Assembly (NCBI GenBank): GCA_004284765.1
Contig: NQJD01000023.1
Location: 1 to 32,000, forward strand
Length of the DNA stretch: 32,000 bases
From: Candidatus Electronema aureum
GTDB lineage: Bacteria > Desulfobacterota > Desulfobulbia > Desulfobulbales > Desulfobulbaceae
Direction: 5' to 3'
Part shown: positions 8,689 through 26,906 of the stretch, piece after piece
How the letters are laid out: each line of letters starts with the position of its first letter
How positions within the stretch are numbered: the first letter of the stretch is position 1
Position numbers and translations under genes: made by a program
The notes under the pieces: generated by a model
Seen by the model: the letters and a program-made list of their open reading frames with translations, nothing else
What the model was told of the DNA's origin: nothing
Database searches by the model: none

Positions 8689-10887
8689 GTGATTCCCAAA
8701 AAGTCCGTTAATGTTGATAGTGCAGAAGAGCTAATCTGCACCAGCAGATTTGGTACATTCTTCGGCGTACCGCAGCAGGTCTTCAACCGTGTCTGGCAGG
8801 CTTTAAGCCGCCCTGACAGCGGGTCGGTAGCCTATGTTTCCATGGAAATCGGCGCAGACCCCGATATCTTTCATCCGGTGCAAGATTTTCTTCGAGAACA
8901 AGCCTACACAAAAAGTGAAAACCCAGCACTCCTGCGTCTGCTCAAAAAATACTTAAACGGTCCCCGTAAAGTACCCAATTATAGCGGTGGTCTCGGCGTG
9001 TTGGCCGGTGATACCCTGAAGAGCTTTGCTGATCTCCACATGCCGGTCTTTGCAGTCTCACTGCTCTACCGGGAAGGTTATTTCTCCCAGTTGGTTGATT
9101 CCAGAGTAGGCCAGATTGATCAGGCCACCCAGTGGAGTCCTGAAGCGACACCGACTCTGTTTCAATTAGAAGACCCGGAACAGCCCGGTCAACCGTTAGA
9201 GCTGACTGTACCTTTTTTCAATGAGTACGATCATCCCACCTTGGCCAAGGCCCATGTCTGGATGAAGATGGAAATCAGCGAGGAAATGGACTATTTTGTG
9301 CCAGAATTCCTGCTTGATTACTCCATTCCCTCGTCGCCGCCGTGGGTGCGCGAAGCCGGTCTGCGGTTGTACAGTGCCAAATCCGACATCATGAAGGCTA
9401 ATCAGCGCCGGATGCTCGGTTCTGGAGTGCTGCCTCTGGCGGAACGACTGGGCTTGACGATAGGCACCATTCACCTCAATGAACAGCACGGGGTGGCAGT
9501 CACGCTGCATCTTATTCTCCGCCAGTTAGAAAAAAAGCTGGGGACAGACTGCCACAACTGCATGAGTGATCAAGACATCTTAGCAGCAGCAGAGGAAGCA
9601 GCCAAGCGGATTGTCTATACCATTCACACCCCGGTTAAGGCCGGGCATGATCGCTTTGCCCGCTCGCTTTACACCGGTATTAGCCATGCCACCTGCCACC
9701 GCATCCTTGATCTGTTAGCCAATGATGCAGATTCGCCGCATGAATACAACTTTACCGCCTTTGCCATGCGAGTCAATCGGGCGGTGAACAGCGTCAGTCG
9801 CCTACACCGAGATGTAACCCGCAAACAGTTTCCTGAGTTTGCACAAAAGATTAGAGCTGTGACCAACGGCGTGCATCATCTGACGTGGATCAGCTCGGCC
9901 AGAGCAGCAGTCTTTGACAGTACGGACGAGCTGTTTGGCTGGCGCGATGATCCAGGTATCTTTGTCCAAGCAGAAATCGGCAACGACCCGGTTTTTCTTG
10001 GCAAGCTCCAGCAGGCGTGGGCAGAAGACAACCGCACCTTGGTGAACTACGTCAATCGGATGCTTTCGGAACACCGCAGCCGGATGGAAGAGACGTGGAT
10101 TGATCCGCCCAACTATCTTTCTCATCTTCGGCAGGGCGAGACCAGCCAGCTCAGTCCGGGTACGTTTACCATTGGCTTTGCCCGCCGCTTTTCTACCTAC
10201 AAACGGGCTGACCTGATCTTTGAGGACATCCCGGCCTTAGCCGATATTCTGCTGAAAAACAACTGGAAGGTCAACTTCCTCTTCGCAGGTAAAGCGCATC
10301 CGCAGGATGAACCTGGCAAGTCAGTGCTGAAGCTGATCCTCGATAATCAAGAGGAGCTGTACACACGAAGCAAGGGCTTGGCTCGGCTGCTTTTTATCCC
10401 CGGCTATGACATGCGCATCGCCCGAATGATGGTTGCCGGTGTCCATACTTGGCTCAACAGCCCTAAGCGACCTTTGGAGGCTTCGGGTACCAGCGGCATG
10501 AAAGCGGCCATGAACGGTGTACCCAATCTGAGCGTGATGGACGGCTGGTGGGTAGAAGGGTATCATGAGGGGCAGACCGGCTGGAAGTTTGGCTACGAAG
10601 GCCCGCTTACTGCTGACAGCCTGAGTGAGGCACCTGAAACCCTGCTTTACGCTGAGGACTCACGCTCTTTTTACGCGCTGCTGCCCAAGGTGCTGGAGAT
10701 GTTCTATGACCGGCCTGATGAGTATCTCCAGTTGGCGGTCAGTAACCTGAAACTGAATGTGCCGATCTTTAACACCCACCGCATGGCAGCGGAATATGTC
10801 CGCAAATACAACCTGCGACTCGACCCGGAAACTGCGGCCCGCATTGAGGGCTTTGCCCGGCTTTACAAAAGCGATTCCTGCGACTAA
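8689..10887 (+). CDS. glgP: Alpha-glucan phosphorylase (GT35, short 'alpha-glucan family' type)
   Basis: YVSMEIG...NYSGGLGVLAGDTLKSFADL...VSLLYREGYFSQ at the N-terminus and the PLP-lysine region EASGTSGMKAAMNGVPNLSVMDGWW near the C-terminus. The start is a GTG at 8689, so the exact start is uncertain. Confidence 0.85.
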   Translation: MIPKKSVNVDSAEELICTSRFGTFFGVPQQVFNRVWQALSRPDSGSVAYVSMEIGADPDIFHPVQDFLREQAYTKSENPALLRLLKKYLNGPRKVPNYSGGLGVLAGDTLKSFADLHMPVFAVSLLYREGYFSQLVDSRVGQIDQATQWSPEATPTLFQLEDPEQPGQPLELTVPFFNEYDHPTLAKAHVWMKMEISEEMDYFVPEFLLDYSIPSSPPWVREAGLRLYSAKSDIMKANQRRMLGSGVLPLAERLGLTIGTIHLNEQHGVAVTLHLILRQLEKKLGTDCHNCMSDQDILAAAEEAAKRIVYTIHTPVKAGHDRFARSLYTGISHATCHRILDLLANDADSPHEYNFTAFAMRVNRAVNSVSRLHRDVTRKQFPEFAQKIRAVTNGVHHLTWISSARAAVFDSTDELFGWRDDPGIFVQAEIGNDPVFLGKLQQAWAEDNRTLVNYVNRMLSEHRSRMEETWIDPPNYLSHLRQGETSQLSPGTFTIGFARRFSTYKRADLIFEDIPALADILLKNNWKVNFLFAGKAHPQDEPGKSVLKLILDNQEELYTRSKGLARLLFIPGYDMRIARMMVAGVHTWLNSPKRPLEASGTSGMKAAMNGVPNLSVMDGWWVEGYHEGQTGWKFGYEGPLTADSLSEAPETLLYAEDSRSFYALLPKVLEMFYDRPDEYLQLAVSNLKLNVPIFNTHRMAAEYVRKYNLRLDPETAARIEGFARLYKSDSCD

Positions 10888-10902
10888 CAAGGAGAACATA
10901 GC

Positions 10903-11334
10903 ATGGCCCGCCACATCAATCCCAGCGGCTCAACCAACAAAGCGATAGATGCTCTTGACCGAAAAAGAGAACGAGAGCGCCGCTTTATCCTCAGCAAGGC
11001 CAGAGACATTGCCCCGGAGCTGGCTGTCCGGTTAGTGCAGCGACTTTTAGATGCGCACATCATTGAAACCAATGATGTCCATGCCATTCAAGACGGTGTG
11101 GAGCGGCAGCTGCGTGAGCCTGCGGAGATGGAAGAATTTGAGATTCGGCTGAAGATTGCCGATATCCGTACCTTAGTGCCAGACCCAAACATCCTTAGTC
11201 TCTACCTGACCGCCTACATTATCAATGACCTCATCGATCATCCACGGGTGCAGGATGTGTTTGGTAGTGACTTGGATGTCTATAACGCGGTTGATTCCGT
11301 GCTCTCCAAGATTCGGCAAGGCGCAGAAGACTGA
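10903..11334 (+). CDS. Hypothetical 143-aa cytoplasmic protein (possibly DUF507-like)
   Basis: AGGAG lies 9 nt upstream. The stop overlaps the ATG of the radical SAM gene (TGATG). The protein is helical and acidic. The DUF507 resemblance (..INDLIDHPRVQDVFGSD..) is only from memory. Confidence 0.55.
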   Translation: MARHINPSGSTNKAIDALDRKRERERRFILSKARDIAPELAVRLVQRLLDAHIIETNDVHAIQDGVERQLREPAEMEEFEIRLKIADIRTLVPDPNILSLYLTAYIINDLIDHPRVQDVFGSDLDVYNAVDSVLSKIRQGAED

Positions 11335-12611
11335 TGGGCAAAAGTACGCGGCCTTCCTTAGTTTTCGCCAATCGTCAGGGCGAAATCCTTGACTATGAGG
11401 GTTTGGAAATGGCCGGAAGCAGCGCAGGGAATTTTTTCAGCCCTGCGCCGGAGGAACTGGTTCCTCTGCCAGAGGGCAGCGAGTTGTTTGTCCTGCCAAA
11501 TCGCTTGCCAGTGGGCATTGAGCCGGAGAGTGGTGAAGCAGCTCTGCTGGCAGAAAATCCCTATGATGGCAGTCCGATTTCCGCCGTGGCGGCGTTCATG
11601 GCTCCGGCTCATACTGCGATTTACACCGCTGCCTATGAGACACAGGAAAAAGCTCCGCTGCTGCCGCTCTTCGCCTACACCGCTGTGGGCTGGCAAGATG
11701 GCAGATTCGTTGTCGCCGCCTTCCGCAGTGACAACGATATCCGTCAAGACCCCAAGGGCTTTGATCAACGGCTGATCAACAAGAAGACAGCAGCCAAGCT
11801 GAAGAAATACCCACACAACCGGCTCATTCAGCATCTCGGTAAATGCTGTCTGACCTACGCTTGTCCCGCTGCCCGCAACTACTTCCTCGGTCGCTGGGAA
11901 GCCCCGCTGCCGACCTCTCCCTGCTGCAACGCGGGCTGTATTGGCTGCATCTCCCAGCAGCCCAGCGGCTGTTGTCCGTCAACCCAAGACCGCATTCACT
12001 TTGTCCCCTCGACCACAGAACTGTTAGAAATAGCTGTGCCACATTTGGAGAAAGCAGCTAAAGCGGTAGTCAGTTTTGGTCAAGGCTGTGAGGGCGAGCC
12101 ACTGCTGCAAGCTCCGACGCTTGAATCTTCCATTCGCCAGATGCGAGCGCAGACCAGCAAAGGTACGATCAATCTTAACACTAACGCCAGTTTACCCGCT
12201 GCGGTTGACCGACTCGCACAGGCCGGGTTAGATTCAATCCGGGTGTCGATGAACTCGGCGCGCGCGGAGATGCACCATCGTTATTATCGGCCTTCTGGCT
12301 TCTCCTTCGCTGATGTACGCCAAACCATCGAGGTAATGAAGAAACATGGTCGCCACGTTTCGCTCAACTATTTCATCATACCCGGCTTTACCGATGACCC
12401 AGACGAACACGCCGCTCTCTGCGAGCTGATCACCTCCTGCCCACCTGACCTGATCCAACTTCGCAATCTGAACATGGACCCAGAGCATTATTTGAAGGCG
12501 GTTGGCCATGCGCCGAATAAACCCGCTTTAGGAATGCTCCGCTGGCTCAAGCTCCTTAAAGAGGAATTCCCGCAGCTCAAATTTGGCTATTTCAATCCAG
12601 CCTTACGCTGA
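11334..12611 (+). CDS. Radical SAM protein with an uncharacterised ~190-aa N-terminal domain
   Basis: CNAGCIGC gives the CX3CX2C cluster motif, followed by a GQGCEGEPLL (GGE-like SAM motif) and a TIM-barrel-length C-terminal part. The substrate is unknown. Confidence 0.8.
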   Translation: MGKSTRPSLVFANRQGEILDYEGLEMAGSSAGNFFSPAPEELVPLPEGSELFVLPNRLPVGIEPESGEAALLAENPYDGSPISAVAAFMAPAHTAIYTAAYETQEKAPLLPLFAYTAVGWQDGRFVVAAFRSDNDIRQDPKGFDQRLINKKTAAKLKKYPHNRLIQHLGKCCLTYACPAARNYFLGRWEAPLPTSPCCNAGCIGCISQQPSGCCPSTQDRIHFVPSTTELLEIAVPHLEKAAKAVVSFGQGCEGEPLLQAPTLESSIRQMRAQTSKGTINLNTNASLPAAVDRLAQAGLDSIRVSMNSARAEMHHRYYRPSGFSFADVRQTIEVMKKHGRHVSLNYFIIPGFTDDPDEHAALCELITSCPPDLIQLRNLNMDPEHYLKAVGHAPNKPALGMLRWLKLLKEEFPQLKFGYFNPALR

Positions 12612-12829
12612 CCTCGTGTTGCTCAAGGCGTACAAAAGCTATATTGATAGGGAGCTGAAGAGTGTCGAGCAGGGAACGTAAGAGCTTCGAGCGAGACAAA
12701 TTTAAAACGTCGCTCGACAAAATTCAGAAGCGTCGGGTGAGGGAATTTACAGGGTCACGGCTTGCTTTGATCCGACAACGGACGGTGATACTCCGTTTTG
12801 TAAAATTGAACAGCGTAACTCCTAATCAG

Positions 12830-12857
12830 TTGACACAGGAATGATGGAGGTTATATT
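12830..12857 (+). promoter_or_regulatory. Candidate sigma70 promoter for the AMIN-domain gene
   Basis: TTGACA (12830-12835), a 16-nt spacer, then TATATT (12852-12857). It lies about 60 nt upstream of ATG 12919, which has a GAGGA Shine-Dalgarno sequence. Confidence 0.45.
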
Positions 12858-12918
12858 CAAAGAAGGTTCCAGTGTTAAAAAGTTCTTTTCCCCCTCAGTG
12901 GCCACCAAACGAGGATCG

Positions 12919-13881
12919 ATGTTGAGAAACATTTCTGCGGCAGCCTTTGCGCTGCTGATCGTGTTCTTCCGCTGCCTGCCTGCGCTCGCGGTAGCACAGA
13001 TAGAGGACATCCGCTTTGAGACTGTTTCCCCGAACGAGGAGCGAGTTGTGTTCCGGCTCAACAGTCCTGTTCTTCCAAACTCCTTCCCGATGAAGGATGG
13101 CAGTCCCAGAATGGTTTTTGACTTCAATGATACCGGTGTTTCCAAGCGGATTAAAAACACCCTTGAGACCAAGGGTACCCTGATTCAACGCATCCGAGTT
13201 GGCATCCACGACAACAAGACGCGCGTAGTGCTGGACTTGGCACCGGGCAGACAAACCAAGAGTTTCAAAGAGCCGGGGGCGAGCGGTACTCTCCTGACCG
13301 TGGTTGTTCATGATGCCAGCGTTCAGCCAGAGCCGAGAAAGGCTGCCGCAACCGCAGGCACCATCTGGACACCCACTGCGGGAAAAACCCCAGAAGTAAA
13401 GCCTGTTGTCCGACTGCCTGAGGAGAAGCAGGTGCAGACTGTAACAACAGCACCACCTCCGGTCAAGGTGCCGGAAGAGCCAATCGTCAAGCCCGTAGCA
13501 AAGCCTTTCTCTGCCGCTGCCACGGTGCTGACTTCAGTGATTTTTGATAAGAATTCCAACCGGGGCGAGATGGTCATGTTCCGACTGAACAAATTCCATC
13601 CGCCCGTAGTCTTTGGCTTGGAAGAGAAGAAGCCGAGGGTGGTCTGTGACTTTCAAGACACCGCTGCGGGCGAGCGTCTGCCAGAGAATATCCCAGCAGA
13701 CGGCAAGTTTGTTCGAGGTATCCGCATCAGCAAGGAAGAATCAGGCAATAAAATCCGGGTGGTACTGGATTTAGCACCGAGCAACAACTATGATCTCCAG
13801 CAGGTCTTTTTCAAGAATGACAATCTCTTTGTCCTGATTATCAATACCCTCGGCAGTTCGGCTACTAAAAAGCTGAACTAA
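12919..13881 (+). CDS. Secreted protein with two AMIN domains joined by a Pro/Lys/Val-rich linker
   Basis: Signal peptide MLRNISAAAFALLIVFFRCLPALAVA. Two copies of the AMIN pattern are present: (R)VVFRLN...P(R)MVFDF.DT......I..IRVG....K(T)RVVLDLAP, and MVMFRLN...PRVVCDFQDT...VRGIRIS...NKIRVVLDLAP. I moved the start from 12841 because the promoter and SD fit 12919. Confidence 0.75.
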   Translation: MLRNISAAAFALLIVFFRCLPALAVAQIEDIRFETVSPNEERVVFRLNSPVLPNSFPMKDGSPRMVFDFNDTGVSKRIKNTLETKGTLIQRIRVGIHDNKTRVVLDLAPGRQTKSFKEPGASGTLLTVVVHDASVQPEPRKAAATAGTIWTPTAGKTPEVKPVVRLPEEKQVQTVTTAPPPVKVPEEPIVKPVAKPFSAAATVLTSVIFDKNSNRGEMVMFRLNKFHPPVVFGLEEKKPRVVCDFQDTAAGERLPENIPADGKFVRGIRISKEESGNKIRVVLDLAPSNNYDLQQVFFKNDNLFVLIINTLGSSATKKLN

Positions 13882-16673: not shown

Positions 16674-16765
16674 TTCGTTCTCAGGTTCAGGTACAGATTA
16701 TATCTGAATATGCCCTGTTGTCTCTAAAATTCCGTTCTTCAGACCATGTGCAACAGAAGACTGCT

Positions 16766-18025
16766 ATGAACCGCCGCACCTTTCTTCAGCAGAGCGGAAA
16801 GCTCGGAGCTGCCGCCTTAGCTGCAACCGCGTTTCCTCGGCTTGTCAAAGCCAAATCTAAGCCAACCATCAAAGTGGTAGGTACTCACGTTACGCTGCTG
16901 GAACCTATTCGCCAGCAGGCCGAGCATGATTTGGGCATCAATATTGAGTTTTATCCCGGTGGCGATGCGGAAGTGCTACTCAAGGCAGCCACTGATCCCA
17001 CCTCTTTTGATCTCTACGAACAGTGGTCGAACAGCATCAAGGTGCTGTGGCAGGCCAAAACCATTCAGTCGATTGACACCAGCAGGCTCACCTATTGGCA
17101 TGAAATCAACAGCCTGAGCAAGACAGGACGCATCTCTGACAAGGCCAAGTTAGGTTTGGGTGACGCGCCCTGCAATCTGCTTTTTATTCAGCCAGATGGT
17201 TCGTTCAGCTGCGTACCTACTGAACACATCAGTTTTTTGCCCTATGTGCATAATGTTGATTCATTTGGCTACAATGCCAGCGTTATTCCTCAAGGCATTC
17301 CCTACGAGACCGAAAGCTGGGGTTGGCTGCTTGATGAACGCTGGCACGGCAAGGTCGCGATAATTAATTCACCGGAAATCGGTTTGTTTGATTTAGCGTT
17401 GGCAGTACGAGCTAAGGGCTTGATGGACTTTAAGAACATGGGCAACATGAGCCGAGAAGAGGTTGACAAGCTCTTTGATATTCTCATTGCCCACAAGCGG
17501 GACGGCCATTTTCGAGGCGTATGGACTTCAGTACCGCATTCCGTTGAGCTGATGGCCTCTGGTGAGGTAGTGCTTGAGAGTATGTTCTCGCCCGGAGTCA
17601 GTGCGCTGAACGGTATGGGTATTCCCTGCATTTATGCCGCCCCAAAAGAAGGCTACCGCGCTTGGCATGGGGTGATGTGCCTTTCTCGTGCCTGCACCGG
17701 CGAGCGACAGGAGGCAGCCTATGCCTTTATGAATTGGTGGCTGTCAGGTTGGCCCGGTGCCTTTATCGCCCGACAAGGCTATTACATTTCCAATCCCCAG
17801 CGTTCCAGACCCTTTATGTCACAGGCAGAGTGGGAATATTGGTATGAAGGCAAGCCTGCCACCGAGCCGCTGCAAGGTACTGATGGCAAAATCTCTGTGC
17901 GGCCCGGCGAGGTTCGCACTGGTGGTTCGTACATCAAACGCTTTGAGAACATTGCAATTTGGAACACAGTCATGGATACCTATGAATACACCATGACCAA
18001 GTGGAACGAGTTTGTCTTAGCCTAA
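16766..18025 (+). CDS. Tat-exported periplasmic solute-binding protein (PotD/PBP2-like), no cognate ABC permease or ATPase nearby
   Basis: MNRRTFLQQSGKLGAAALAATAFPRLVKA is a twin-arginine signal. The mature part of about 390 aa has polyamine-type SBP features (aromatic-rich W/Y pockets). I chose ATG 16766 over the TTG at 16718. Confidence 0.7.
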   Translation: MNRRTFLQQSGKLGAAALAATAFPRLVKAKSKPTIKVVGTHVTLLEPIRQQAEHDLGINIEFYPGGDAEVLLKAATDPTSFDLYEQWSNSIKVLWQAKTIQSIDTSRLTYWHEINSLSKTGRISDKAKLGLGDAPCNLLFIQPDGSFSCVPTEHISFLPYVHNVDSFGYNASVIPQGIPYETESWGWLLDERWHGKVAIINSPEIGLFDLALAVRAKGLMDFKNMGNMSREEVDKLFDILIAHKRDGHFRGVWTSVPHSVELMASGEVVLESMFSPGVSALNGMGIPCIYAAPKEGYRAWHGVMCLSRACTGERQEAAYAFMNWWLSGWPGAFIARQGYYISNPQRSRPFMSQAEWEYWYEGKPATEPLQGTDGKISVRPGEVRTGGSYIKRFENIAIWNTVMDTYEYTMTKWNEFVLA

Positions 18026-18036
18026 GGAGGGCAGTG

Positions 18037-19833
18037 ATGACCAATTTTCTCCTGCGTGCTATTGGCCTGAAGAAACGCATTGTGTTTGGCTACGTTATCA
18101 CCGGCGCAATGGCCTTCATGATTGCGCTGCTCTCCTACGGAGCTTTCACCAGACTTTCTGCGGATTTCAGAAAAATTGTTCTTTTCAGTCGCCGCTCTGC
18201 TGATAACATGGTTTTTGCTGCTCAGATGGCCGAGATGCAGCGGCAGGCCCTCATTTATATCTATGAAGGCCACAGTTCGTCAGGTTCGCAGGTTGGTGTA
18301 ATCTATCAGAAGATGATGCAAAACATCGGCGGCAGCGAAGCCATAGAGCAGCTCGGTGCTAAGGCCGTGGTGACTTTAGCCAAGAAGCATCTGGAAGCCT
18401 ATTATGAGGCATTTCAAGAGGTACGGCGGCAGCGGCAGCTCCAAGCTCGCTTAGTGAAAAGTGAATTTCGCGTTCATGCCACCAGAGGGCAGCAGTTGAT
18501 TGAAGAGCTGATTCGAGAAGAAGGAGAAACTCGCTTGCTCGAATGCACAAAGATGCTCAACGCTCTCTTACAAATTGAAAAAAATGCCTACCGCTATCTT
18601 GATTCCTTTGACGGTGATTTCATCAAAGCTGCTTTGTTTAATATTCAAGAAACGCGTTCTTTGATTGGACATTTCCAACAGAACCATCAAACGATAGAAC
18701 TTAATAACGTACTGAATAGCTACGAAAGCAGCTTTTTAGAAGCCGTGCAGCGCACTCGTGGCTATCTTTACCTCACCAGCGTAGTCATGGCAGCCCAAGC
18801 CTACGAGACGATGTATCAATCGAAAAAACTCTCTGCGTTGATGATCAGTGAATCAGAGCGCATCCAGCAGCAATTGTTTCAGCACGTCAGTTCTCGCTTG
18901 AGGCTTTTGCTCTTCTGGACCGTTTTTCTCCTCCTCTTTATTGCCCTGTTTTCTTACGTCATCACCAAAAGCATTACTATCCCGCTTAAACGGTTGACCA
19001 AAACCTTCAAGCTGCTGGCTTCTGGCTCGGCAGACGCAGAAATTCCATCGTACCCACTTCAAGATGAATTAGGTGATCTCACCAATGCAGCTGCCAGCTT
19101 TAAAGAGAAAAACATTGCCCTGCGAACCAGTAAGCAGGAGTTAGAGCGGTCGAATGACGAATTAGAGCAATTTGTCTATACTGTCTCGCATGATCTGAAA
19201 TCACCGATTGTTACCAGTATGGGTTTCATCGGCATCATCCGCAAATTAGCCAGCCAAGGAAAAGCAGAACAGGCGATGGGAATGCTGGATAAAGTGGTTA
19301 AGGCCAATGAGCGGATGAGTCAGCTGATCAATGACTTACTGGAACTGAGCCGAGTAGGGCGGATCGACATGGACAAGAAGCAGATCGATCTGAACCAGCT
19401 CCTTGGTGATTTTGCCCACAACCAATCGGAACGATTGAAGGCAGCTAAGTTCACCCTGACGGTAGAGCAAGACTTGCCCGTCATTTATGCCAATGAAAGC
19501 CGCACGCTTCAGGTCTTTGAGAATATTCTTTCCAACGGCTTGAAATACGTGCGCAACGAGAAGGAAGGTGGCCGTTTGCGGATCAGCTCGTTTGAAGATA
19601 AGCAGTGGCACCATATTCGCTGCACTGACAATGGGCTAGGCATCCCAGAAGAATACCGAGAGAAAATCTTTGGGCTTTTTTACCGCCTTGATGTAAATAT
19701 AGAAGGTACCGGCATTGGCTTGGCCGTAGCAAAGAAGATTATGAAATTCCACAACGGCGATATCCGGGCAGAAGCAGGGCCGAATGGCGGAGCCGTGTTT
19801 CATCTTACCTTTCCCAAAATGATGGATTTGTAA
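18037..19833 (+). CDS. Membrane sensor histidine kinase (helical periplasmic sensor - TM - HAMP - HisKA - HATPase_c)
   Basis: Two TM segments flank a helical domain of about 280 aa. HAMP region (ITIPLKRLTKTFKLLASG...ELGDLTNAAASF), H-box FVYTVSHDLKSPI, N-box NILSNGLKY, G1 DNGLGI and G2 GTGIGLAV. AGGAGG lies 8 nt before ATG 18037. Confidence 0.85.
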   Translation: MTNFLLRAIGLKKRIVFGYVITGAMAFMIALLSYGAFTRLSADFRKIVLFSRRSADNMVFAAQMAEMQRQALIYIYEGHSSSGSQVGVIYQKMMQNIGGSEAIEQLGAKAVVTLAKKHLEAYYEAFQEVRRQRQLQARLVKSEFRVHATRGQQLIEELIREEGETRLLECTKMLNALLQIEKNAYRYLDSFDGDFIKAALFNIQETRSLIGHFQQNHQTIELNNVLNSYESSFLEAVQRTRGYLYLTSVVMAAQAYETMYQSKKLSALMISESERIQQQLFQHVSSRLRLLLFWTVFLLLFIALFSYVITKSITIPLKRLTKTFKLLASGSADAEIPSYPLQDELGDLTNAAASFKEKNIALRTSKQELERSNDELEQFVYTVSHDLKSPIVTSMGFIGIIRKLASQGKAEQAMGMLDKVVKANERMSQLINDLLELSRVGRIDMDKKQIDLNQLLGDFAHNQSERLKAAKFTLTVEQDLPVIYANESRTLQVFENILSNGLKYVRNEKEGGRLRISSFEDKQWHHIRCTDNGLGIPEEYREKIFGLFYRLDVNIEGTGIGLAVAKKIMKFHNGDIRAEAGPNGGAVFHLTFPKMMDL

Positions 19834-19863
19834 GGGCGACCCCCTGTGGTCGCCCTTCGTTTG
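19834..19863 (+). terminator. Rho-independent terminator between the kinase gene and the convergent telA-like gene
   Basis: GGGCGACC-ccctgt-GGTCGCCC (perfect 8-bp stem) starts 1 nt after the TAA and is followed by TTCGTTTG. Confidence 0.7.
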
Positions 19864-19881: not shown

Positions 19882-21033
19882 TCACCTCAGCACTGCCGCG
19901 CTGGCTGCCTTCAACGCCGCTTTCAGCTTCTCTTCAGCCTCAGCCAGTTTCTCTAACCCTTCGGCCCGTTTCTGTCGATTTTCGACATCCATCTTGATAC
20001 CTTGGTCAATAGTTTGCAGGAGCTTGTCCGTCATCAGCTGCAAGGTCTCGACTTTGACAAAGCCCTCGCCCTGCGCCTTCTTCACTGCCGCTTGGGTCTC
20101 ACCCAGCATCTCGGCGGTGGACATCATCATATTGTTGGTCATCTCTCGTGTCTCATTGACCATTGCCATCGCCCGCTTTTGATCAAACAGGGAAATAGCA
20201 ATGACCAGCTGCTTCTTCCATTCTGGTATCATCATCAGGATTGAATCTTGAATTATCTCTACAATCGCTTTGGAGCCTTCTTGGGCAATTCTGATCGTCG
20301 GGCCGGAAGTAACTGCCGAGGCGCGGGCTAACTTCAGGTTGTAGAGGCGCCGGTCAAGCGACTGAATGCAATCGCCGAAGTCTTTCAAATCTTGCAGCTC
20401 CTTGGCATCCACACCATTCTGCGCGGCCAAAGTCTGCCGCTGCTGCTCGAACTGCGTCTCCATCTCAGCCATCTTCAGCTCACCTGCGGCAATCACTACC
20501 TCAAGCTGATCAAAGTATTCGTTGTTGCGGTCATAAAGCGTATCCAAGCGGTTGAGATGGGAAATCTGATTGGTCTTTTCTGCCTCCAGCCGTTTCGTGA
20601 TGGCATCAATCTGCACCTTGAGGGTTTCATAGCGGCGAATAAAGGCGCGTGCCGCATCGACCTTGGCCGCTAACCAACCGCCCACCACCGGCAAGCTACT
20701 AACCACCCTACTCAACGCGCCGCCCGCGCTTTGCGGCAGGCCGCGCACGTCGAGATCAAGGATTTTTCCTTTCAGATCAGACATCAGCTGACCAGTCGGC
20801 CCAGCGTCACCAGAGCGAATGTTGGTCAGCACCGAATCGGTGAAATCAACTAACCCTTTCTGGCTACTCACACCAAAGGCAAGCACGGCCTGTGTCTTGC
20901 TGAAGTCTAACTTGGCGACTAATTCCTGCGCTGCCTTCAGCTTGGCCGGGGACTTCTCCGCTAATTTCATGTACAGCAGGCTGTTCTTCTGCTCTGTCAA
21001 AGCCAGCATCGGCAAATTGTCTGTCATCGTCAT
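19882..21033 (-). CDS. telA: TelA-family (toxic anion resistance / YaaN-like) protein
   Basis: 383 aa and all-helical. The N-terminal region ...LDFSKTQAVLAFGVSSQKGLVDFTDSVLTNIRSGDAGPTGQLMSDLKGKILDLDV matches the conserved TelA N-terminal signature. GGGAGGGA Shine-Dalgarno. Confidence 0.85.
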   Translation of the reverse strand: MTMTDNLPMLALTEQKNSLLYMKLAEKSPAKLKAAQELVAKLDFSKTQAVLAFGVSSQKGLVDFTDSVLTNIRSGDAGPTGQLMSDLKGKILDLDVRGLPQSAGGALSRVVSSLPVVGGWLAAKVDAARAFIRRYETLKVQIDAITKRLEAEKTNQISHLNRLDTLYDRNNEYFDQLEVVIAAGELKMAEMETQFEQQRQTLAAQNGVDAKELQDLKDFGDCIQSLDRRLYNLKLARASAVTSGPTIRIAQEGSKAIVEIIQDSILMMIPEWKKQLVIAISLFDQKRAMAMVNETREMTNNMMMSTAEMLGETQAAVKKAQGEGFVKVETLQLMTDKLLQTIDQGIKMDVENRQKRAEGLEKLAEAEEKLKAALKAASAAVLR

Positions 21034-21057
21034 TCCCTCCCGTCAGCGGGATGCGGG

Positions 21058-22161
21058 TTAAAAGCTGCTGAGTTGCTTGGTGATTTTGTTCATCACTGTC
21101 GCGTTGGGCATGGGTATGACCGCATCGATGCTCTTGGGCAGACCGACTACCTCCAGCACCGAAGGATCATTCTCAACTCCCATCAAGCCGCTGCGGAAGC
21201 CGTGCTGCTCCCAAGCTGACTTCTGAAGTTTTGGTTCTTTGAGCGCAGCCAGCAGCTTCTTCCCTTTGTCGGTCATGGCAATCAGCGGATGGCTGGCCCA
21301 GACCGTCGGCACCGGATAGAGAATGCGCACCTTGGCCTTGAGCAGCTCAAGATGCTCCTTGTGCAGCAGCGAGTATTCTACTAACTGGTTCTCATAGCCA
21401 ACAATCATCGGATACGCCCCAACTCCCTGCTGGAGAAATTTCTCAAAAAGGTCAGACGAAGACTGCTCCATGTAGCCAAGCCGGGCATACAGGTCTTTGA
21501 CTTGGGGCAGCACGTTGTCAACAGTGTCTGTTGCAACCACTTCGCCGTTGTTCAGAGTATTGGCAATCAAGGCAGCAAACATGTTGCCAGAATTGCTCTT
21601 GCTGGGATCGGTGGTGCGGATGATCAAACTGCCGTAAAGCTGGGTCAGGCCGATCTCTTTCCACTGCTTCTTGGTCTTGACCAACTCAAGCAGCTTGGGC
21701 AGGTCAACAATGTAATTAACCCCTTCCTTGTGCTGAACTATCCCGGCCTTGATCAGGGCATCAGTGACGATATCCCAAGAGTACAACACAATGGGCGAGT
21801 TGAAGATGTCTGCCGACTGCTGGAGCCGAGTGCGGGAAGTGGAAGTCTTGAACGACTCCACATTGATCTGGCTGGCTGGCCAGAGAAAATCGTCATCGCT
21901 GGCCGCCTCCTGCACCATCTCCACGCTGCCTGCTTTCTTGACATTCACCTTCAGCCCTTGCTCGGCCAGCAGCTGCGTAACCTTTTCCGATTGGAGAAAG
22001 GCGATCTTCTCCGAACCAGCCCGGCCAGTCACAGTGACCAGCTCGCCTTTGGGTGCGGAGCTACCGCCGCTGATTGAAGAAATCTTGTCCTTGCCGAACA
22101 TGAAGAAGGCCGCAGCCGCAGCCACAGCCAGCAGAATGATCAGCCCTAAGAATTTTTGCAT
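21058..22161 (-). CDS. N-terminally membrane-anchored periplasmic-binding-protein-like (SBP fold) protein
   Basis: A single TM (LGLIILLAVAAAAAFFMF) is followed by a domain that aligns by eye with the N-terminal domain of ORF 23765..25411: GSVEMV/GSVDIS, WPAS, NSPIV/RSPVV, SKSNSGN/TQSNSGT, GYENQ/NYEAM, HGFRSGLMGVENDP/QGRRTGLIGMEADP. GGAGAAGG Shine-Dalgarno. Confidence 0.7.
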   Translation of the reverse strand: MQKFLGLIILLAVAAAAAFFMFGKDKISSISGGSSAPKGELVTVTGRAGSEKIAFLQSEKVTQLLAEQGLKVNVKKAGSVEMVQEAASDDDFLWPASQINVESFKTSTSRTRLQQSADIFNSPIVLYSWDIVTDALIKAGIVQHKEGVNYIVDLPKLLELVKTKKQWKEIGLTQLYGSLIIRTTDPSKSNSGNMFAALIANTLNNGEVVATDTVDNVLPQVKDLYARLGYMEQSSSDLFEKFLQQGVGAYPMIVGYENQLVEYSLLHKEHLELLKAKVRILYPVPTVWASHPLIAMTDKGKKLLAALKEPKLQKSAWEQHGFRSGLMGVENDPSVLEVVGLPKSIDAVIPMPNATVMNKITKQLSSF

Positions 22162-22179
22162 ATCCTTCTCCGTGTGGGT

Positions 22180-22764
22180 TCAGTCAAAGTCGAGCAGATT
22201 ATCAAAGGTTCTGGCATTGGTGCTGAGGTCGATGGCATCGTTTTCTAAGAGTCTATGGTGCATTTCCTCAAACTTGGCTACCGCCTTAGTCACGGCCTTT
22301 TCTGTGGCCTCCAGTGCCCGCGCACTCTGAGGCGAGTGGGTTTTTTGGTTAGCAAGGTCGATGTAACCAACAAGTATCTCGTGGAGCCGTTGCAGGCGGT
22401 CAGGCAAGGCTTGCGCCACCTGCATATCCTGCGGGTCTTTCTCAAAATTGATGAGCAAATCATCGCCCAGCTCGCAAAGATGCAGCACCGTCTTCTTGAA
22501 GGACAGATTATTGACCGCTGCCGCATCCTCGTACACTAAGGACAAGGCCAGCCTGCACTGCGAGAGATACTGCCTGAACTCCTCCTGTGAAACACCGTCC
22601 GGCAGCTCGGCAAGCACCTTGCGGTGTTCCGGCGGGAAAAGCAGGCGGATGCCGACATAACTGCCGATTGCCAGTGCAAGACTCAGCCACCAGAATGCGC
22701 CCTGGAAGAGCAGCAGCAGGAAGATGAAGGCGGCGGCAATGCCGGAGACGAGTTCTTTGATCAT
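22180..22764 (-). CDS. xpaC: XpaC-like two-TM protein (5-bromo-4-chloroindolyl phosphate hydrolysis protein family)
   Basis: Two N-terminal TM helices are followed by a helical cytoplasmic domain of about 140 aa. Its size and architecture, and its pairing with a TelA-family gene, mirror B. subtilis xpaC-yaaN. The family call still needs an HMM check. Confidence 0.55.
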   Translation of the reverse strand: MIKELVSGIAAAFIFLLLLFQGAFWWLSLALAIGSYVGIRLLFPPEHRKVLAELPDGVSQEEFRQYLSQCRLALSLVYEDAAAVNNLSFKKTVLHLCELGDDLLINFEKDPQDMQVAQALPDRLQRLHEILVGYIDLANQKTHSPQSARALEATEKAVTKAVAKFEEMHHRLLENDAIDLSTNARTFDNLLDFD

Positions 22765-23507
22765 TTAGAATATACTGTCCAAGCCCAAGCAGCGAGTGGC
22801 AATATGAGTGTACTCGCTATCCATTGCCAATATTTAACAACAAATAATTTACTTGAATAGATAGGGTTAATCTGAACATATATTTCTTTATCCAGAACCG
22901 GATGATCTTTTTTTTCTTCACCGAATGGCAACCTTATTCGTAAGGTAACATGAAGATGAAGCACCTTTCTCCCTCTATTTAGTGGGACAACGTCCCAAAC
23001 CCACTCTGTAAACCCTTTCTCTCCGAGGATTTGTTCTGCTTCGTTCAATGGGACAATTTGGAAGTCATCTCCGCTGAGACGAACTTTCATTAATTCAGAA
23101 ATTTTCAACTCTTCAATTTGAGGAAATCCGCTCCCTTTCAGGTTACTCCTTAGATTAAGGTACAATTCTCTGGAAATTCTTACTTCTACTCTTTCAGATA
23201 TGCCCAATTTCATCGTATTGGGAGGGTTAAAAAGTATCCTTCCAATTGGCAACTTGCTAAGTTCATTCTGATAAACCTCTCTGTAGCTCGTCTTTTCTCT
23301 ATCTATTGAGATATTACGACGAATCTGATCAAATATAATGCTAAACTCTTCTTGCGTCATGCAGCAACAGCAATATTTTCCTTGGCGGATTGCCCAAAGA
23401 GCAACTCCCGCCACAATCAACATTGCAATACTGCCGATAAGTAACGAAATTGACCAATTGCTGATTATCCATGTGAAAAATATTCTCATAAAATTATTAA
23501 TATCCAT
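22761..23507 (-). CDS. Hypothetical membrane protein: N-terminal TM region, CCCC motif, beta-rich central domain, C-terminal TM
   Basis: 248-aa ORF in an AT-rich stretch. Its stop overlaps the xpaC-like ATG (ATGA at 22761-22764). An alternative start at Met7 (23489) would form another ATGA overlap with the upstream ORF's stop. I recognise no family. Confidence 0.55.
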   Translation of the reverse strand: MDINNFMRIFFTWIISNWSISLLIGSIAMLIVAGVALWAIRQGKYCCCCMTQEEFSIIFDQIRRNISIDREKTSYREVYQNELSKLPIGRILFNPPNTMKLGISERVEVRISRELYLNLRSNLKGSGFPQIEELKISELMKVRLSGDDFQIVPLNEAEQILGEKGFTEWVWDVVPLNRGRKVLHLHVTLRIRLPFGEEKKDHPVLDKEIYVQINPIYSSKLFVVKYWQWIASTLILPLAAWAWTVYSK

Positions 23508-23764
23508 CGATCAATGCCTGCAAGCTGTCCGGGAAGGTTCTGGAGGAGCTTGCGGATGTTCAGCAGCAGATTCGGAACGTCCAAAACGAGATTTAGGATG
23601 TCCGCAGCCTCGTTTTGGACATCCATAGCGAGGTTCAGAACGTTCCTAATGAGCTTTTTGATGTTCAAAATCTCATTAGGGGCCTCCCAAAAGAGGTTCG
23701 GAATGTTCCCGGTCTGCTTCTGAACATCTATGACGAGCTTGTGAACGTTCGCAATGAGCTTCAT
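23486..23764 (-). CDS. 92-aa protein made of 12 tandem heptads [K/N]-L-x-x-[N/D]-[V/I]-x
   Basis: The ATG (23764-23762) directly abuts the TAA of the upstream PBP-vWA gene. The orientation matches the operon. The frame stays open through the twelve 21-nt repeats. The coding status is not proven, because the opposite strand is also open. Confidence 0.5.
   Translation of the reverse strand: MKLIANVHKLVIDVQKQTGNIPNLFWEAPNEILNIKKLIRNVLNLAMDVQNEAADILNLVLDVPNLLLNIRKLLQNLPGQLAGIDRWILIIL
23510..23761. repeat. Twelve imperfect 21-bp tandem repeats (consensus on the minus strand AAS CTC NNN NNG RAC RTY NNN; several units contain the palindrome GAACGTTC)
   Basis: Units were read out one by one from the sequence (23761-23741, 23740-23720, ... 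23530-23510). Confidence 0.85.
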
Positions 23765-25411
23765 TTAATTATACCCCTTCGCCTCTCTGAACGCCTGCAC
23801 CACATCCTTGCGGCCATCAAACATCCGGCCTGACATGGCCTCAGCAAAGGCTTTCATCTGCTCAGGCTTGGCATCACCAAAGAGGATGGTGAAGACCGGC
23901 ACATCCTTGCCCATGTTCGTGCCACCGATCAGCGTCTGGAACTGGTTGAGACTGCCTTCACTCATGCCGTCACTCATCACAATCACCGAGGAATGATACG
24001 TGCCAGATTCAGCCAGCAGCTTCATCTGCTTCATCGCTTCTGCCGCGCCCACGTACATATTGGTGCCGCCGCCCGGCTCCAAGGCTTCTACTTTGGCAAG
24101 CAGCTCGCCCAGCACTTGCGGGTCATTTCCTTTGGCCTCAAAGGAGGGCATCACCCCGCTGTTGAAGGGCACGATGATGGTCATATCCTCTGGCGAGGCT
24201 TGGAGCAGGTATTCTTTGGCAATCCGCTGATCAAGCAAGGTACGCATCGCCTTGCGCAGTTGCTCCACGCCCGTGCCTGCCATACTGCCCGAGTAATCCA
24301 GCACATACGCAGTAAGCGAGGGCTTGCGGAAGGCAGTCTGGTAAAGGTTAAGAGCCTCTGAGACCACTGGTGCGGCGGGAATTCTAATCGGCGTGAGGAT
24401 GCGGCTGAGGTTGATACCCCAGTCAGGATTGAAGACTGCGTTCAGGGCCGCAGCCTTGGCCGGATCAGCCTCCATGCCAATCAAACCAGTGCGGCGGCCT
24501 TGAGCCTGAATGCTATCTTGCACTGCCGGACTAAGCAGGTATTCTTGCAGCTTGGCAAAGACCGCCTCCTTTGCCGCGTCGCCTTTAGCAATGAAGCCGA
24601 GCGGACTGTCAGCGATGGAGATGCCATCGACGGGATACACTGCATACAGCGGCTCTTGGCCGGGCGGCAATTGGCGGTTGAACTCAATCACCATTGCCTC
24701 ATAATTGACCATGCCGTCATAATACAAATACTCCTTGAGCAGCATGTCCTTCAGCCAGCCAGAGCTGCCCGAAGAGCGGTTGACACTGCGCAGGAATCGC
24801 TTGATCTTGTCCGCCGCTTTTGGGTCATTCAGATGCTCGTTCGTCAGCACCTCTGGCCCGCCGGCAAAGGCGGAGAGGAAGGCGAGAAAAGCCGAGGTGC
24901 CGGAGTTAGACTGAGTAGCTGAGGTCATAGCAAAGCGGACATTGCCCTTCTCTACCGCCTCCAGAATCTCCATCACGGTGACATCTTTCTTGTCCCAGCC
25001 AAGCTTGCTGGCAATGGACTTCTTGACCGCAAAGACCACCGGGCTGCGCATGATCGACTTGGCGTTCTTGACCACGCCCTGCTTGTCGCCGAGCGAAAGC
25101 CAGAGACCAGAGGCAGGCCAGATTGCGTCGAACTGTGAGCCTACGCCCTTAGCCAGCTCTAAGCTGATATCAACCGAACCCATGTACTTGATCGAAATGC
25201 CGATGCTCTGCTGCTGGGCAAACTGCTGAAGCAGCGGTTCCAAGGTGCTGTTCTCAGAGCCGGAGACAATGGACAAGGAGCCAACTGGACTAGGGCTGGG
25301 GACTGCTTGCTGATTTGGCGAAGATTGAGGCGGCTGGCTTTGGTCGCAACCGAAAAGGGCAAGAACGGCGAGACTGGTGATCAGAACAATAAAATTACGG
25401 AACGGCTTCAT
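23765..25411 (-). CDS. Lipoprotein with N-terminal PBP-like (solute-binding fold) domain fused to a C-terminal von Willebrand A domain
   Basis: Lipobox ALFG-C and a Q/P/S-rich linker, then the PBP-like domain (see 21058..22161). The C-terminal vWA domain has a complete MIDAS: VLDYSGSM, GGGTNMY, VIVMSDGMSEG. GGGAGGAAG Shine-Dalgarno. Confidence 0.8.
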   Translation of the reverse strand: MKPFRNFIVLITSLAVLALFGCDQSQPPQSSPNQQAVPSPSPVGSLSIVSGSENSTLEPLLQQFAQQQSIGISIKYMGSVDISLELAKGVGSQFDAIWPASGLWLSLGDKQGVVKNAKSIMRSPVVFAVKKSIASKLGWDKKDVTVMEILEAVEKGNVRFAMTSATQSNSGTSAFLAFLSAFAGGPEVLTNEHLNDPKAADKIKRFLRSVNRSSGSSGWLKDMLLKEYLYYDGMVNYEAMVIEFNRQLPPGQEPLYAVYPVDGISIADSPLGFIAKGDAAKEAVFAKLQEYLLSPAVQDSIQAQGRRTGLIGMEADPAKAAALNAVFNPDWGINLSRILTPIRIPAAPVVSEALNLYQTAFRKPSLTAYVLDYSGSMAGTGVEQLRKAMRTLLDQRIAKEYLLQASPEDMTIIVPFNSGVMPSFEAKGNDPQVLGELLAKVEALEPGGGTNMYVGAAEAMKQMKLLAESGTYHSSVIVMSDGMSEGSLNQFQTLIGGTNMGKDVPVFTILFGDAKPEQMKAFAEAMSGRMFDGRKDVVQAFREAKGYN

Positions 25412-25463: not shown

Positions 25464-25493
25464 ACCGTACCCGTAGTGTCGCAGGAGTGTCAA
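25464..25493 (-). promoter_or_regulatory. Candidate sigma70 promoter for the PBP-vWA...telA operon
   Basis: On the minus strand, TTGACA (25493-25488), an 18-nt spacer, then TACGGT (25469-25464). The -35 is perfect and the -10 is weak. It lies about 50 nt upstream of ATG 25411. Confidence 0.25.
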
Positions 25494-25817: not shown

Positions 25818-26147
25818 ATGACGAGTAAAGAATACTGCATCGTCATTACTACTTTTACCGATGACCGCAATGGGCAGCAAATTATTGATGCCCTGCTTGC
25901 GGAACGGTTGGCCGCTTGCGTACAGGTATTGCCGATTCAGAGTTTTTATCATTGGCAGGGCAAGGTCAACTGTGATGCCGAGAAATTGGTGCTGATCAAG
26001 ACAAAGTGTAGCCTGTACGCCCAAGTACAGCAAACGATTCTCTCCCATCACGCTTACGAAGTGCCGGAAATCATCCAAGTGCCGATAACGGACGGCTTGC
26101 CAGCGTATTTGAACTGGATTAGTAAGGAATGCAGAGCGCAGAACTGA
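25818..26147 (+). CDS. cutA: CutA1 divalent-cation tolerance protein
   Basis: 109 aa with ..VITT......A..IA..L.E..LAACVQ..P..S.Y.W.G.......E..L.IKT.......V...I...H.YEVPEII..PI the classic CutA pattern. Confidence 0.85.
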   Translation: MTSKEYCIVITTFTDDRNGQQIIDALLAERLAACVQVLPIQSFYHWQGKVNCDAEKLVLIKTKCSLYAQVQQTILSHHAYEVPEIIQVPITDGLPAYLNWISKECRAQN

Positions 26148-26189: not shown

Positions 26190-26906
26190 ATGAAACGAAA
26201 GATCATTGAAATCAACGAGGAACTTTGCACTGGCTGCGGCGAGTGCATCCCTAACTGCGCAGAAGGTTCGTTACGGATCATTGACGGCAAGGCCCGCTTA
26301 GTGGCGGACAAACTCTGCGACGGCCTTGGTGCTTGTCTGGGCCATTGTCCAGCTGGTGCCTTGGTGATTATCGAACGGGAAGCAGAGGACTTTGACCAAG
26401 AGGCAGTGGATCAATTCTTGGCCGCAGAAAAGACGCAACCGCCGAGCCGTTGTCCATCTGCCCAGCTGAAGATGATGCAGCCGTCCTCCTGCGAGGCCGC
26501 TAATTCCCCGTCTGCACAGACAGGCAGTGCGCTCAGTCATTGGCCGGTGCAAATCCGCCTTGTTCCACCCAGCGCACCGTTCTTGGAGAATTGCGATCTG
26601 CTGATTGCTGCTGACTGCACAGCACTTGCCTATGCTGGCTTGCAGCAGGATTTCCTCCAAGGCCGCAAGGTGATGATGGGCTGCCCGAAATTCGATGACC
26701 AGCAGCTTTATGTTGATCGCTTTACCGAGCTATTTAAAACCAGACAGCTCAAGTCAGTAACGCTACTGATCATGGAAGTACCTTGCTGCTCGGCCATGCT
26801 CCAGATTGTTAGAAGAGCATATAACCAAGCGGGGGCCAAGGTATCGGTGCAACAGGTAGTGGTCTCTACGCAAGGGGAAATTGTTGACAGGCGGGACTGG
26901 CAGTAG
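26190..26906 (+). CDS. 4Fe-4S dicluster ferredoxin-domain protein with a Cys-containing C-terminal domain
   Basis: CTGCGECIPNC and CDGLGACLGHCP cluster motifs at the N-terminus. The C-terminal region of about 130 aa (HWPVQIRLV...GCPKFDD...VPCCS) recurs in anaerobe Fe-S proteins. Confidence 0.75.
   Translation: MKRKIIEINEELCTGCGECIPNCAEGSLRIIDGKARLVADKLCDGLGACLGHCPAGALVIIEREAEDFDQEAVDQFLAAEKTQPPSRCPSAQLKMMQPSSCEAANSPSAQTGSALSHWPVQIRLVPPSAPFLENCDLLIAADCTALAYAGLQQDFLQGRKVMMGCPKFDDQQLYVDRFTELFKTRQLKSVTLLIMEVPCCSAMLQIVRRAYNQAGAKVSVQQVVVSTQGEIVDRRDWQ

Follow-up and report, generated by a model that had tools for sequence, protein, structure and literature searches.

The window analysed here, a 32,000-nucleotide (nt) stretch of contig NQJD01000023.1 from Candidatus Electronema aureum, a freshwater cable bacterium, carries six closely packed open reading frames (ORFs; g1 to g6) on its minus strand between positions 19882 and 25411. 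Our analysis gives good support to the view that this region is a single operon built around a four-gene envelope module that is conserved and horizontally mobile, namely g1, g4, g5 and g6, which encode a lipoprotein with a substrate-binding protein (SBP) domain fused to a vWA domain (SBP-vWA), an XpaC-family membrane protein, a membrane-anchored SBP paralog (SBP2) and a TelA-family protein, respectively. We class this cassette as an XpaC/TelA envelope-stress pair extended by a conserved pair of extracytoplasmic receptors. An initial annotation, made from the DNA sequence without database searches, had treated all six genes as one functional unit; the unit to study at the locus is four genes, not six. 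The genes are arranged as follows.

23765-25411, minus strand: g1, SBP-vWA lipoprotein, 548 amino acids (aa)
23486-23764, minus strand: g2, heptad-repeat ORF, 92 aa
22761-23507, minus strand: g3, membrane protein, 248 aa (probably 242 aa, with the start at 23489)
22180-22764, minus strand: g4, XpaC family, 194 aa
21058-22161, minus strand: g5, type II SBP paralog with a transmembrane anchor, 367 aa
19882-21033, minus strand: g6, TelA family, 383 aa

All six minus-strand ORFs were confirmed on the sequence at the coordinates first assigned to them, and the tight junctions described for them were found as well. The stop codon of g1 (TAA) is directly followed by the ATG of g2, with 0 nt between them. 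The ORFs of g2 and g3 overlap by 22 nt, which becomes an ATGA overlap if g3 starts at Met7 (23489), the start of the corresponding 242-aa NCBI protein, and g3 and g4 are likewise joined by an ATGA overlap. The gaps between g4 and g5 (18 nt) and between g5 and g6 (24 nt) are preceded by the purine-rich Shine-Dalgarno sequences GGAGAAGGA and GGGAGGGA, respectively.

The six proteins were compared with 88 fetched loci by tblastn and by iterated hidden Markov models (HMMs) run on all ORFs, and linkage was counted among the unique loci with enough downstream DNA (67 for g5 and XpaC, 56 for TelA), drawn from 84 loci. The SBP-vWA family is extensive and conserved to an unusual degree: more than 2,368 cluster representatives match it, with identity above 50% across Desulfobacterota, Verrucomicrobiota, Planctomycetota, Acidobacteriota, Melainabacteria and others, and relatives are encoded at no fewer than 565 places in species-representative genomes of many phyla. 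A g5-type gene is the adjacent partner downstream of g1, on the same strand, in 67 of 67 loci; an XpaC-type gene lies between the two in 57 of these, very often with a 4-nt overlap at the XpaC-g5 junction, and the ten loci that have no XpaC are mostly from Chloroflexi. TelA follows g5 in 17 of 56 loci. The loci with linked TelA come from Desulfobulbaceae, Desulfamplus, Syntrophobacteraceae, SAR324, Acidobacteriota, Desulfovibrionaceae, Treponema, Halothermothrix and several Clostridia. The SBP-vWA/SBP2 pair forms the obligate core, to which XpaC is nearly always added and TelA often as a fourth gene, which corrects the notion of TelA as the hub of the system. The TelA linkage of about 30% is not a sensitivity artefact: profiles that included the divergent TelA proteins of Variovorax and Sphaerotilus returned an unchanged set of 21 ORFs. 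An additional invariant partner gene was also sought and rejected, the clusters among the flanking ORFs being antisense shadow ORFs of TelA only, and a Pfam census of the 127 nearest neighbours returned no family in more than two of them.

The association is preserved when the order of the genes changes. On megaplasmids of Variovorax and Sphaerotilus (25% to 33% identity), the order is SBP2, TelA, SBP-vWA and a protein with two transmembrane segments, and in Deinococcus (25% to 33% identity) it is SBP2, SBP-vWA and a protein with two transmembrane segments. Membership of these permuted cassettes in the respective families was checked by HMM and Pfam searches, the proteins with two transmembrane segments being XpaC-like mainly by architecture. 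Linkage that outlasts rearrangement is strong evidence for a functional unit, and the comparison of neighbourhoods answers in the affirmative the earlier question of whether the two binding proteins, XpaC and TelA form a conserved cassette, which extends across phyla. On plasmid 2 of Variovorax sp. SRS16 (L092), the permuted cassette is located between flotillin and OB-fold (NfeD-like) genes (1-1138) and a Wadjet anti-plasmid/anti-phage system (JetA family; 10496-13404).

The mobility of the cassette is apparent in gut Firmicutes. The four-gene cassettes of Faecousia, Merdivicinus, Gemmiger and Ruminococcus (L058, L059, L061 and L064) are 98-99% identical in nucleotides, and the same identity extends over upstream recombinase-like and helix-turn-helix-like genes (approximately 4700-11600 in L058). 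Near-identity between four genera of Firmicutes shows that the cassette was transferred horizontally, and recently, on a mobile element. Taken together with carriage on megaplasmids, this transfer suggests that the cassette behaves like an accessory resistance trait.

By contrast, neither g2 nor g3 has a homolog in the 88 related loci, which include five other Electronema genomes and Electrothrix, by either tblastn or iterated HMMs, and both were rejected as members of the cassette. The heptad repeat noticed in g2 is real, with periodicity z-scores of 6.7, 6.2, 5.3 and 5.2 at lags of 7, 14, 21 and 28; no tandem repeat was found in the gene at the DNA level, and an exhaustive HMMER search returned only g2 itself and repeat matches in large repetitive proteins. 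Thus, g2 is an orphan ORF and belongs to a strain-specific insert. The composition of g3 is foreign, with a GC content of 37.8% and a third-codon-position GC content (GC3) of 35.7%, compared with a GC3 of 66-70% in the four core genes. Its product, previously described as a CCCC-motif membrane protein, does have an N-terminal transmembrane segment, a variable linker with CCCC, a conserved domain of approximately 170 aa and a C-terminal transmembrane segment, but the CCCC motif is not conserved in the family alignment. The 66 homologs detected form an uncharacterised family with varied N-terminal fusions (PNP_UDP nucleosidase-like, pentapeptide-repeat, HEAT, TPR, fn3 or CarboxypepD_reg regions, or a transmembrane helix alone), and their genomic contexts are unrelated to TelA, XpaC or SBP-vWA. 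One of these homologs, from Methylobacter (L089), is encoded next to an Imm35 immunity-protein gene. We conclude that both genes are cargo specific to this strain and acquired horizontally.

The g1/XpaC junction is a recurrent insertion site inside the operon in the genus Electronema. It spans 22765-23764 in the window, and the other junction spans are 8642-9587 in L010, 8627-9521 in L011, 8630-8787 in L012, 8620 in L013 and 8639-9470 in L014. In E. halotolerans, the stop codon of g1 overlaps the start codon of XpaC (TGATG) and there is no cargo. The two-ORF cargos of Electronema measure 0.9-1.0 kb and differ by species. The junction of Electronema sp. JC holds a HepT-like/nucleotidyltransferase (HepT/MNT-type) pair of the toxin-antitoxin type, and the content of other Electronema junctions includes a 175-aa membrane ORF followed by a 110-aa CarboxypepD_reg-like ORF, a duplicated XpaC, and a 158-nt non-coding remnant with inverted repeats. 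L011 and L012 have a right-boundary motif in common, GACTGAATC..A..GCC, then ATG. The absence of g2 and g3 from every related locus, sister species included, the foreign composition of g3, the unrelated contexts of its homologs and the differing cargo among Electronema species largely refute the six-gene unit.

The family assignments of g1, g4 and g6 withstood profile searches, and the periplasmic-binding-protein assignment of g5 holds by paralogy and fold. No Pfam match was obtained for g2, g3 or g5, and the NCBIfam and PADLOC profiles gave nothing meaningful for the six proteins, nor did the PHROG library of phage families for the operon proteins. In g1, a type II SBP domain (approximately aa 44-330) is fused to a vWA domain (approximately aa 365-548). 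The former matches Pfam SBP_bac_11 with an E-value of 8e-17 and 62.2 bits (cut-off 25) over model positions 6-226 of 227, and the latter matches VWA, VWA_2 and VWA_3, all above their cut-offs (E-values of 4e-9 to 1e-7). The protein carries the lipobox LALFGC with Cys22, as expected of a bacterial lipoprotein; a hydrophobic leader ending in Cys is found in essentially all of 80 g1 homologs, and Cys22 and the motif MTSATQSNSG are invariant or nearly so in the alignments. The metal ion-dependent adhesion site (MIDAS) of the vWA domain is complete, as first noted (D372-x-S374-x-S376, T450 and D481), and invariant in 36 homologs; on the basis of sequence and fold, it is predicted to be a functional metal-binding site. 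An AlphaFold model built on alignments of homologs has a mean predicted local distance difference test score (pLDDT) of 89.3. In Foldseek searches of the PDB, the SBP domain is nearest to ferric-binding proteins, the sugar-phosphate binders AfuA and VcA0625, Sbp and the two-component co-sensor SBP 6lkg (template-modelling score TMt 0.65; also a sequence match), and the C-terminal domain matches the vWA domains of ITIH1 and ITIH4 (TMt 0.75, root-mean-square deviation 3.2). The g1 protein is 100% identical to a protein of Candidatus Electronema aureum, and its homologs are mostly mislabelled as "Ca-activated chloride channel family protein".

The second binding protein, g5, is a paralog of the N-terminal domain of g1 (25% identity over 355 columns, E-value 2e-11 in BLASTP). 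It fails the SBP_bac_11 profile and is placed among type II SBPs by fold and paralogy: its AlphaFold model, also built on alignments of homologs (pLDDT 90.3), has the type II SBP fold, with sulfate-binding protein, ferric-binding FbpA, ModA and metal-citrate-binding MctA as the nearest structures (E-values of about 1e-10, TM-scores of 0.5-0.67, identity of at most 17%). For both g1 and g5, the Foldseek probability for matches to Sbp, FbpA, ModA and AfuA is 1.00. A solved structure related to g5 by sequence was not found, and all of the 120 g5 homologs listed are unnamed or "hypothetical" in their sources. The N-terminal hydrophobic segment of g5 is preceded by K/R, as in a signal anchor, in 73 of 73 homologs. 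The 2 SBP modules share a series of paired motifs (g1/g5: GSEN/GGEK, GSVD/GSIEM, TSATQSNSG/TDPTKSNSG, SSGSSG/SSGD, NYE/GYE and GRRTG/GFRSG), which lie at the starts of helices 50, 79, 190, 235 and 257 of the g5 model. Ser52 and Ser79 of g1 align with two serines of Y. pestis ModA, which we take to be the counterparts of the oxyanion-binding S12 and S39 of E. coli ModA.

The remaining two proteins of the cassette match the families proposed for them over nearly the full length of the models. The g4 protein matches Halogen_Hydrol/XpaC (PF10112) with an E-value of 2.1e-19 and 70.7 bits (cut-off 29.8; model positions 3-186 of 191), and consists of an N-terminal hairpin of two transmembrane segments (approximately aa 5-45) connected by a 4-residue uncharged loop, followed by a helical domain of about 150 aa. 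In XpaC homologs, K/R residues precede the first transmembrane segment and follow the second, which fits a hairpin with both termini inside, and the helical domain is accordingly predicted to be cytoplasmic. The g6 protein matches TelA (PF05816) with an E-value of 5.7e-70 and 236.5 bits (cut-off 30; model positions 2-331 of 332); no hydrophobic segment, transmembrane helix or signal peptide was found in it, and it is therefore predicted to be cytoplasmic. Given the XpaC hairpin, the TelA sequence and the anchors of g1 and g5, the ligand-binding modules and the vWA domain face outward, and the XpaC helical domain and TelA lie in the cytoplasm. The earlier topology, with two extracytoplasmic SBP modules, an XpaC with two transmembrane segments and a cytoplasmic TelA, thus stands as a sequence-based prediction. 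Searches for solved structures related by sequence to XpaC or to TelA found none. The possibility that the soluble domain of XpaC is a diverged TelA was rejected (hhalign probability 1%).

The genomic pairing of XpaC and TelA, found in the same operon here and in 17 of 56 loci with g5 in between, is also known from Firmicutes. In B. subtilis, xpaC-yaaN(telA) is counted in the core of the sigmaW envelope-stress regulon (PMC3498285), and deletion of xpaC in E. faecium lowers the daptomycin minimum inhibitory concentration and redistributes phospholipid microdomains, only with telA intact (PMC6811118). This dependence on telA suggests that TelA is active at the membrane and that XpaC restrains or organises it there. 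In Listeria, mutation of telA increases the sensitivity to nisin and tellurite (Collins 2010, as cited in PMC12791056), and TelA tolerance phenotypes are described for Listeria, E. faecium and plasmid RK2 homologs only (PMC12791056, PMC6811118).

We give about an even chance to a reading in which the two extracytoplasmic receptors act via XpaC on TelA, so that the cassette would form a ligand-gated membrane-protection module. The SBP modules of g1 and g5, on the outer face of the cytoplasmic membrane, would bind the same or a similar small ligand, probably an anion. Ligand-dependent SBP closure and a MIDAS-mediated protein contact made by the vWA domain would change how they dock on the XpaC hairpin, the cytoplasmic domain of XpaC would in turn hold or release TelA, and TelA would act on the inner leaflet, reorganising or protecting the membrane. 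The four proteins include no enzyme, ATPase, kinase or DNA-binding domain, and the output must therefore be physical, i.e., assembly or scaffolding. The anionic nature of the ligand is suggested by the Ser/Thr/Asn-rich motifs at helix N-termini, as in oxyanion-binding SBPs, and by the alignment with the ModA serines; the nearest folds of g1 and g5 are oxyanion, ferric-plus-anion and sugar-phosphate binders as well as the co-sensor 6lkg. All steps beyond the domain and topology assignments are what we infer from these features.

Several observations weigh against this reading. Linked TelA is found at no more than about 30% of loci and 10 of 67 have no XpaC, so the SBP pair may act without either of them. 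XpaC exposes only approximately 4 uncharged residues outside the membrane, and coupling to the SBPs would have to run via contacts between transmembrane segments, for example with the anchor of g5. The presumed pockets contain conserved acidic residues (E53 and E238 in g1; E51 and E257 in g5), which are unusual for a pure oxyanion site and make a metal or metal-anion ligand possible. Finally, the fold matches are remote (TM-scores of 0.5-0.7, identity of at most 17%).

Because only the SBP pair is invariant and XpaC is barely exposed outside, a purely extracytoplasmic binding role stays alive, in which the tethered SBPs and the MIDAS metal site would capture a toxic anion or metal-anion outside the cell, with XpaC and TelA optional and no signal transmitted. 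We consider this sequestration or buffering role rather improbable. It agrees with the invariance of the two extracytoplasmic proteins alone (67/67, with XpaC lacking in 10/67 and linked TelA in 39/56), with the proximity of the SBP folds to oxyanion and ferric-anion binders, with the conserved acidic and Tyr residues of the pocket that could coordinate metal (Y237-E238 and E53), and with the name of the TelA family, which refers to resistance to tellurite, an oxyanion. However, stoichiometric binding by membrane-tethered proteins is a weak form of detoxification and leaves unexplained the tight coupling to a mostly cytoplasmic XpaC, seen as ATGA overlaps in most loci; moreover, TelA linkage outlasts the permutation of gene order. 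A module for phosphate limitation appears still less probable. Tellurite enters E. coli through the PitA phosphate transporter, and the tellurite phenotype of TelA would follow from the use of phosphate uptake routes by tellurite. The g1 SBP domain does resemble the sugar-phosphate binders AfuA and VcA0625, and some cassettes have suggestive flanks: a PhoU-domain protein, PPK2 and alkaline phosphatase in Desulfamplus (L003), a phytase/5'-nucleotidase, Exo_endo_phos and a phosphodiesterase in L006, and PhoX and an ExeM/NucH nuclease on the Sphaerotilus plasmid (L093). Yet such neighbours occur at only 6 of 84 loci plus Sphaerotilus, no phosphate-related family is found in more than two of the 127 nearest neighbours, and the window has no such genes. 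Phosphate-scavenging neighbours (L003, L006, L023 and L093) are too few for a rule and are concentrated where present.

Another conceivable role for g1 and g5 is that of orphan SBPs serving an ATP-binding cassette (ABC), tripartite ATP-independent periplasmic (TRAP) or tripartite tricarboxylate (TTT) transporter encoded elsewhere, with XpaC and TelA as chance neighbours. The SBP fold is confirmed and SBP_bac_11 proteins are mostly transporter components, but no permease or ATPase family recurs beside the cassette in 84 loci, which is why g1 and g5 are not classed here as SBPs of transporters. In addition, the vWA fusion, the paralog with a transmembrane anchor and the near-universal intervening XpaC are not features of transporters, and the linkage to XpaC and TelA persists in different phyla and gene orders, making this explanation very unlikely. 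Equally little probability attaches to the reading of the six genes as one functional complex, or of the locus as an anti-phage defence system, for which the tight packing of the six ORFs with the g3/g4 ATGA overlap, the historical links of Ter and TelA to phage and colicin resistance, the toxin-antitoxin-type cargo at the g1/XpaC junction of Electronema sp. JC and the Wadjet system near the Variovorax copy could be invoked. It is contradicted by the distribution and composition of g2 and g3 described above, with g3 homologs occurring where there is no cassette, and by the flanks of the 84 loci, which are ordinary and non-recurrent. Against PADLOC-DB v2, the sole match listed for the six proteins was to a Type II methyltransferase model (E = 0.024); with no meaningful match, the defence role raised in the initial annotation is without direct support.

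Comparison with known systems places the ligand-gated reading in context. The Firmicute xpaC-telA pair (B. subtilis xpaC-yaaN, L. monocytogenes lmo1966-lmo1967 and the E. faecium genes) belongs to the same Halogen_Hydrol and TelA families, is encoded in one operon and, like the cassette, combines a membrane-anchored XpaC with a soluble TelA; published accounts link it to envelope-acting stress (PMC3498285, PMC6811118, PMC12791056). Unlike this pair, the cassette has two SBP-fold proteins flanking XpaC, one of them fused to vWA, g5 separates XpaC from TelA, and XpaC tracks the SBP pair (57/67) far more than TelA (17/56). A MIDAS vWA domain, the TelA family, the association of both with 'toxic anion resistance' and frequent carriage on plasmids or mobile elements are shared with Ter/TerY and RK2 kilA/telA. 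By contrast with Ter systems, genes for TerB, TerC, TerD or TerZ are missing from the cassette, as is a kinase/phosphatase pair, and no match to TerB, TerC or TerD was found in the operon, its immediate flanks or the recurrent neighbours. TerY is a cytoplasmic vWA protein, whereas the vWA domain of the cassette belongs to an exported lipoprotein and is fused to an SBP. Thus, of the earlier analogy with TerY, the shared vWA fold remains, but not a shared system.

A functional parallel may be offered by membrane sensors that depend on an SBP, such as LuxP-LuxQ and TorT-TorS. In SBP co-sensors of histidine kinases (PDB 6lkg), a type II SBP likewise recognises a ligand on behalf of a membrane partner that is not a transporter; in the cassette, however, this partner would be an XpaC with two transmembrane segments and no catalytic domain, and TelA rather than phosphorylation would be the presumed output. 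By analogy only, PspB/PspC-PspA and LiaF/LiaI-LiaH are similar in their logic: a soluble helical effector is brought to the inner leaflet, or held back there, by small membrane proteins, with no enzymatic domains involved. However, no homology to them was detected, with no PspA_IM30 match, and neither Psp nor Lia includes an extracytoplasmic SBP or vWA partner. With ModA, Sbp and FbpA (SBP_bac_11), the cassette SBPs share the type II fold, two N-lobe serines and an ADxFxSA-like motif that aligns with ModA; they differ in being membrane-tethered, in one case fused to vWA, with no cognate ABC transporter, identity of at most 17% and a distinctive motif set (GSEN, MTSATQSNSG, NYE and GRRTG).

No published account of the cassette was found in the searchable full text, which left out the description of Ter/TelA neighbourhoods by Anantharaman, Iyer & Aravind 2012; in the searchable literature, the architecture is uncharacterised, as had been suspected. 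For decades, TelA and XpaC have been connected with resistance to tellurite, nisin, daptomycin and further agents that act on the envelope, but neither is known to have a biochemical mechanism or a solved structure (PMC12791056, PMC6811118). At the 565 or more places noted above, the cassette sets XpaC between two ligand-binding proteins that are exposed at the surface and have confident fold models. As SBP ligands can be found by simple binding screens, what XpaC and TelA respond to becomes tractable. A more specific form of the ligand-gated reading, which we advance tentatively and regard as unlikely, is that the SBP-vWA/SBP2 pair is the long-missing receptor for XpaC/TelA, with anion binding switching TelA through XpaC from an inactive to a membrane-remodelling state and with an oxyanion, such as phosphate or a species resembling tellurite, or else a phosphorylated intermediate of the envelope as the candidate ligand. 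If true, this would provide the first ligand, the first signalling partner and a mechanism for the TelA family, and kinase-independent SBP-to-scaffold envelope sensors would emerge as a new class, found in hundreds of species.

The operon is bounded by the following two candidate elements.

25464-25493, minus strand: putative sigma70-type promoter, TTGACA (25493-25488), 18-nt spacer, TACGGT (25469-25464)
19832-19857, no strand assigned: GC-rich hairpin with a 10-bp stem and a 6-nt loop, located between the TelA gene and the histidine-kinase gene convergent with it

The first element, TTGACA-N18-TACGGT, is located approximately 50 nt upstream of the g1 ATG, and no other block in this upstream region is conserved across the five Electronema genomes compared. 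Its -35 hexamer is invariant and its spacer largely conserved; the -10 hexamer is TACGGT here, TACGAT in 3 of the 4 other Electronema genomes and TACCAT in L010. A consensus scan missed this element because the -10 hexamer matches the consensus at only 3 of 6 positions in this genome. We take it as the putative operon promoter, possibly with an operator. A promoter had been anticipated in the 400-bp spacer upstream of g1, and a conserved candidate is present there, but it is confined to 25493-25464 rather than spread over the spacer. At the other end, a terminator had been placed at 19834-19863; there is a hairpin, but its position is corrected to 19832-19857 and it has no U-tract. Folding of a 56-nt stretch gave a minimum free energy of -20.6 kcal/mol (z -2.36). 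The hairpin was not listed by the terminator scan, overlaps the stop codon of the convergent kinase gene and is possibly a bidirectional transcript end. In the whole window, including the 5' region, no Rfam match reached the gathering score.

The flanks of the cassette are not conserved; its neighbours here are genes for an SBP_bac_8 protein and a histidine kinase at one end and for CutA1 at the other. At 16718-19833 on the plus strand, the gene for the SBP_bac_8-family protein (435 aa) overlaps by 25 nt that for a HisKA/HATPase_c histidine kinase (610 aa). This pair, which is convergent with TelA, resembles an SBP-coupled sensor kinase and is not kept beside the cassette in Electrothrix. Divergent from the region upstream of the operon are the genes for a CutA1 divalent-ion-tolerance protein (25818-26147, plus strand) and a 4Fe-4S dicluster protein (26190-26906, plus strand), beyond which lie envelope polysaccharide genes encoding a Wzy_C/TPR protein and a Wzz/tyrosine-kinase-like protein.

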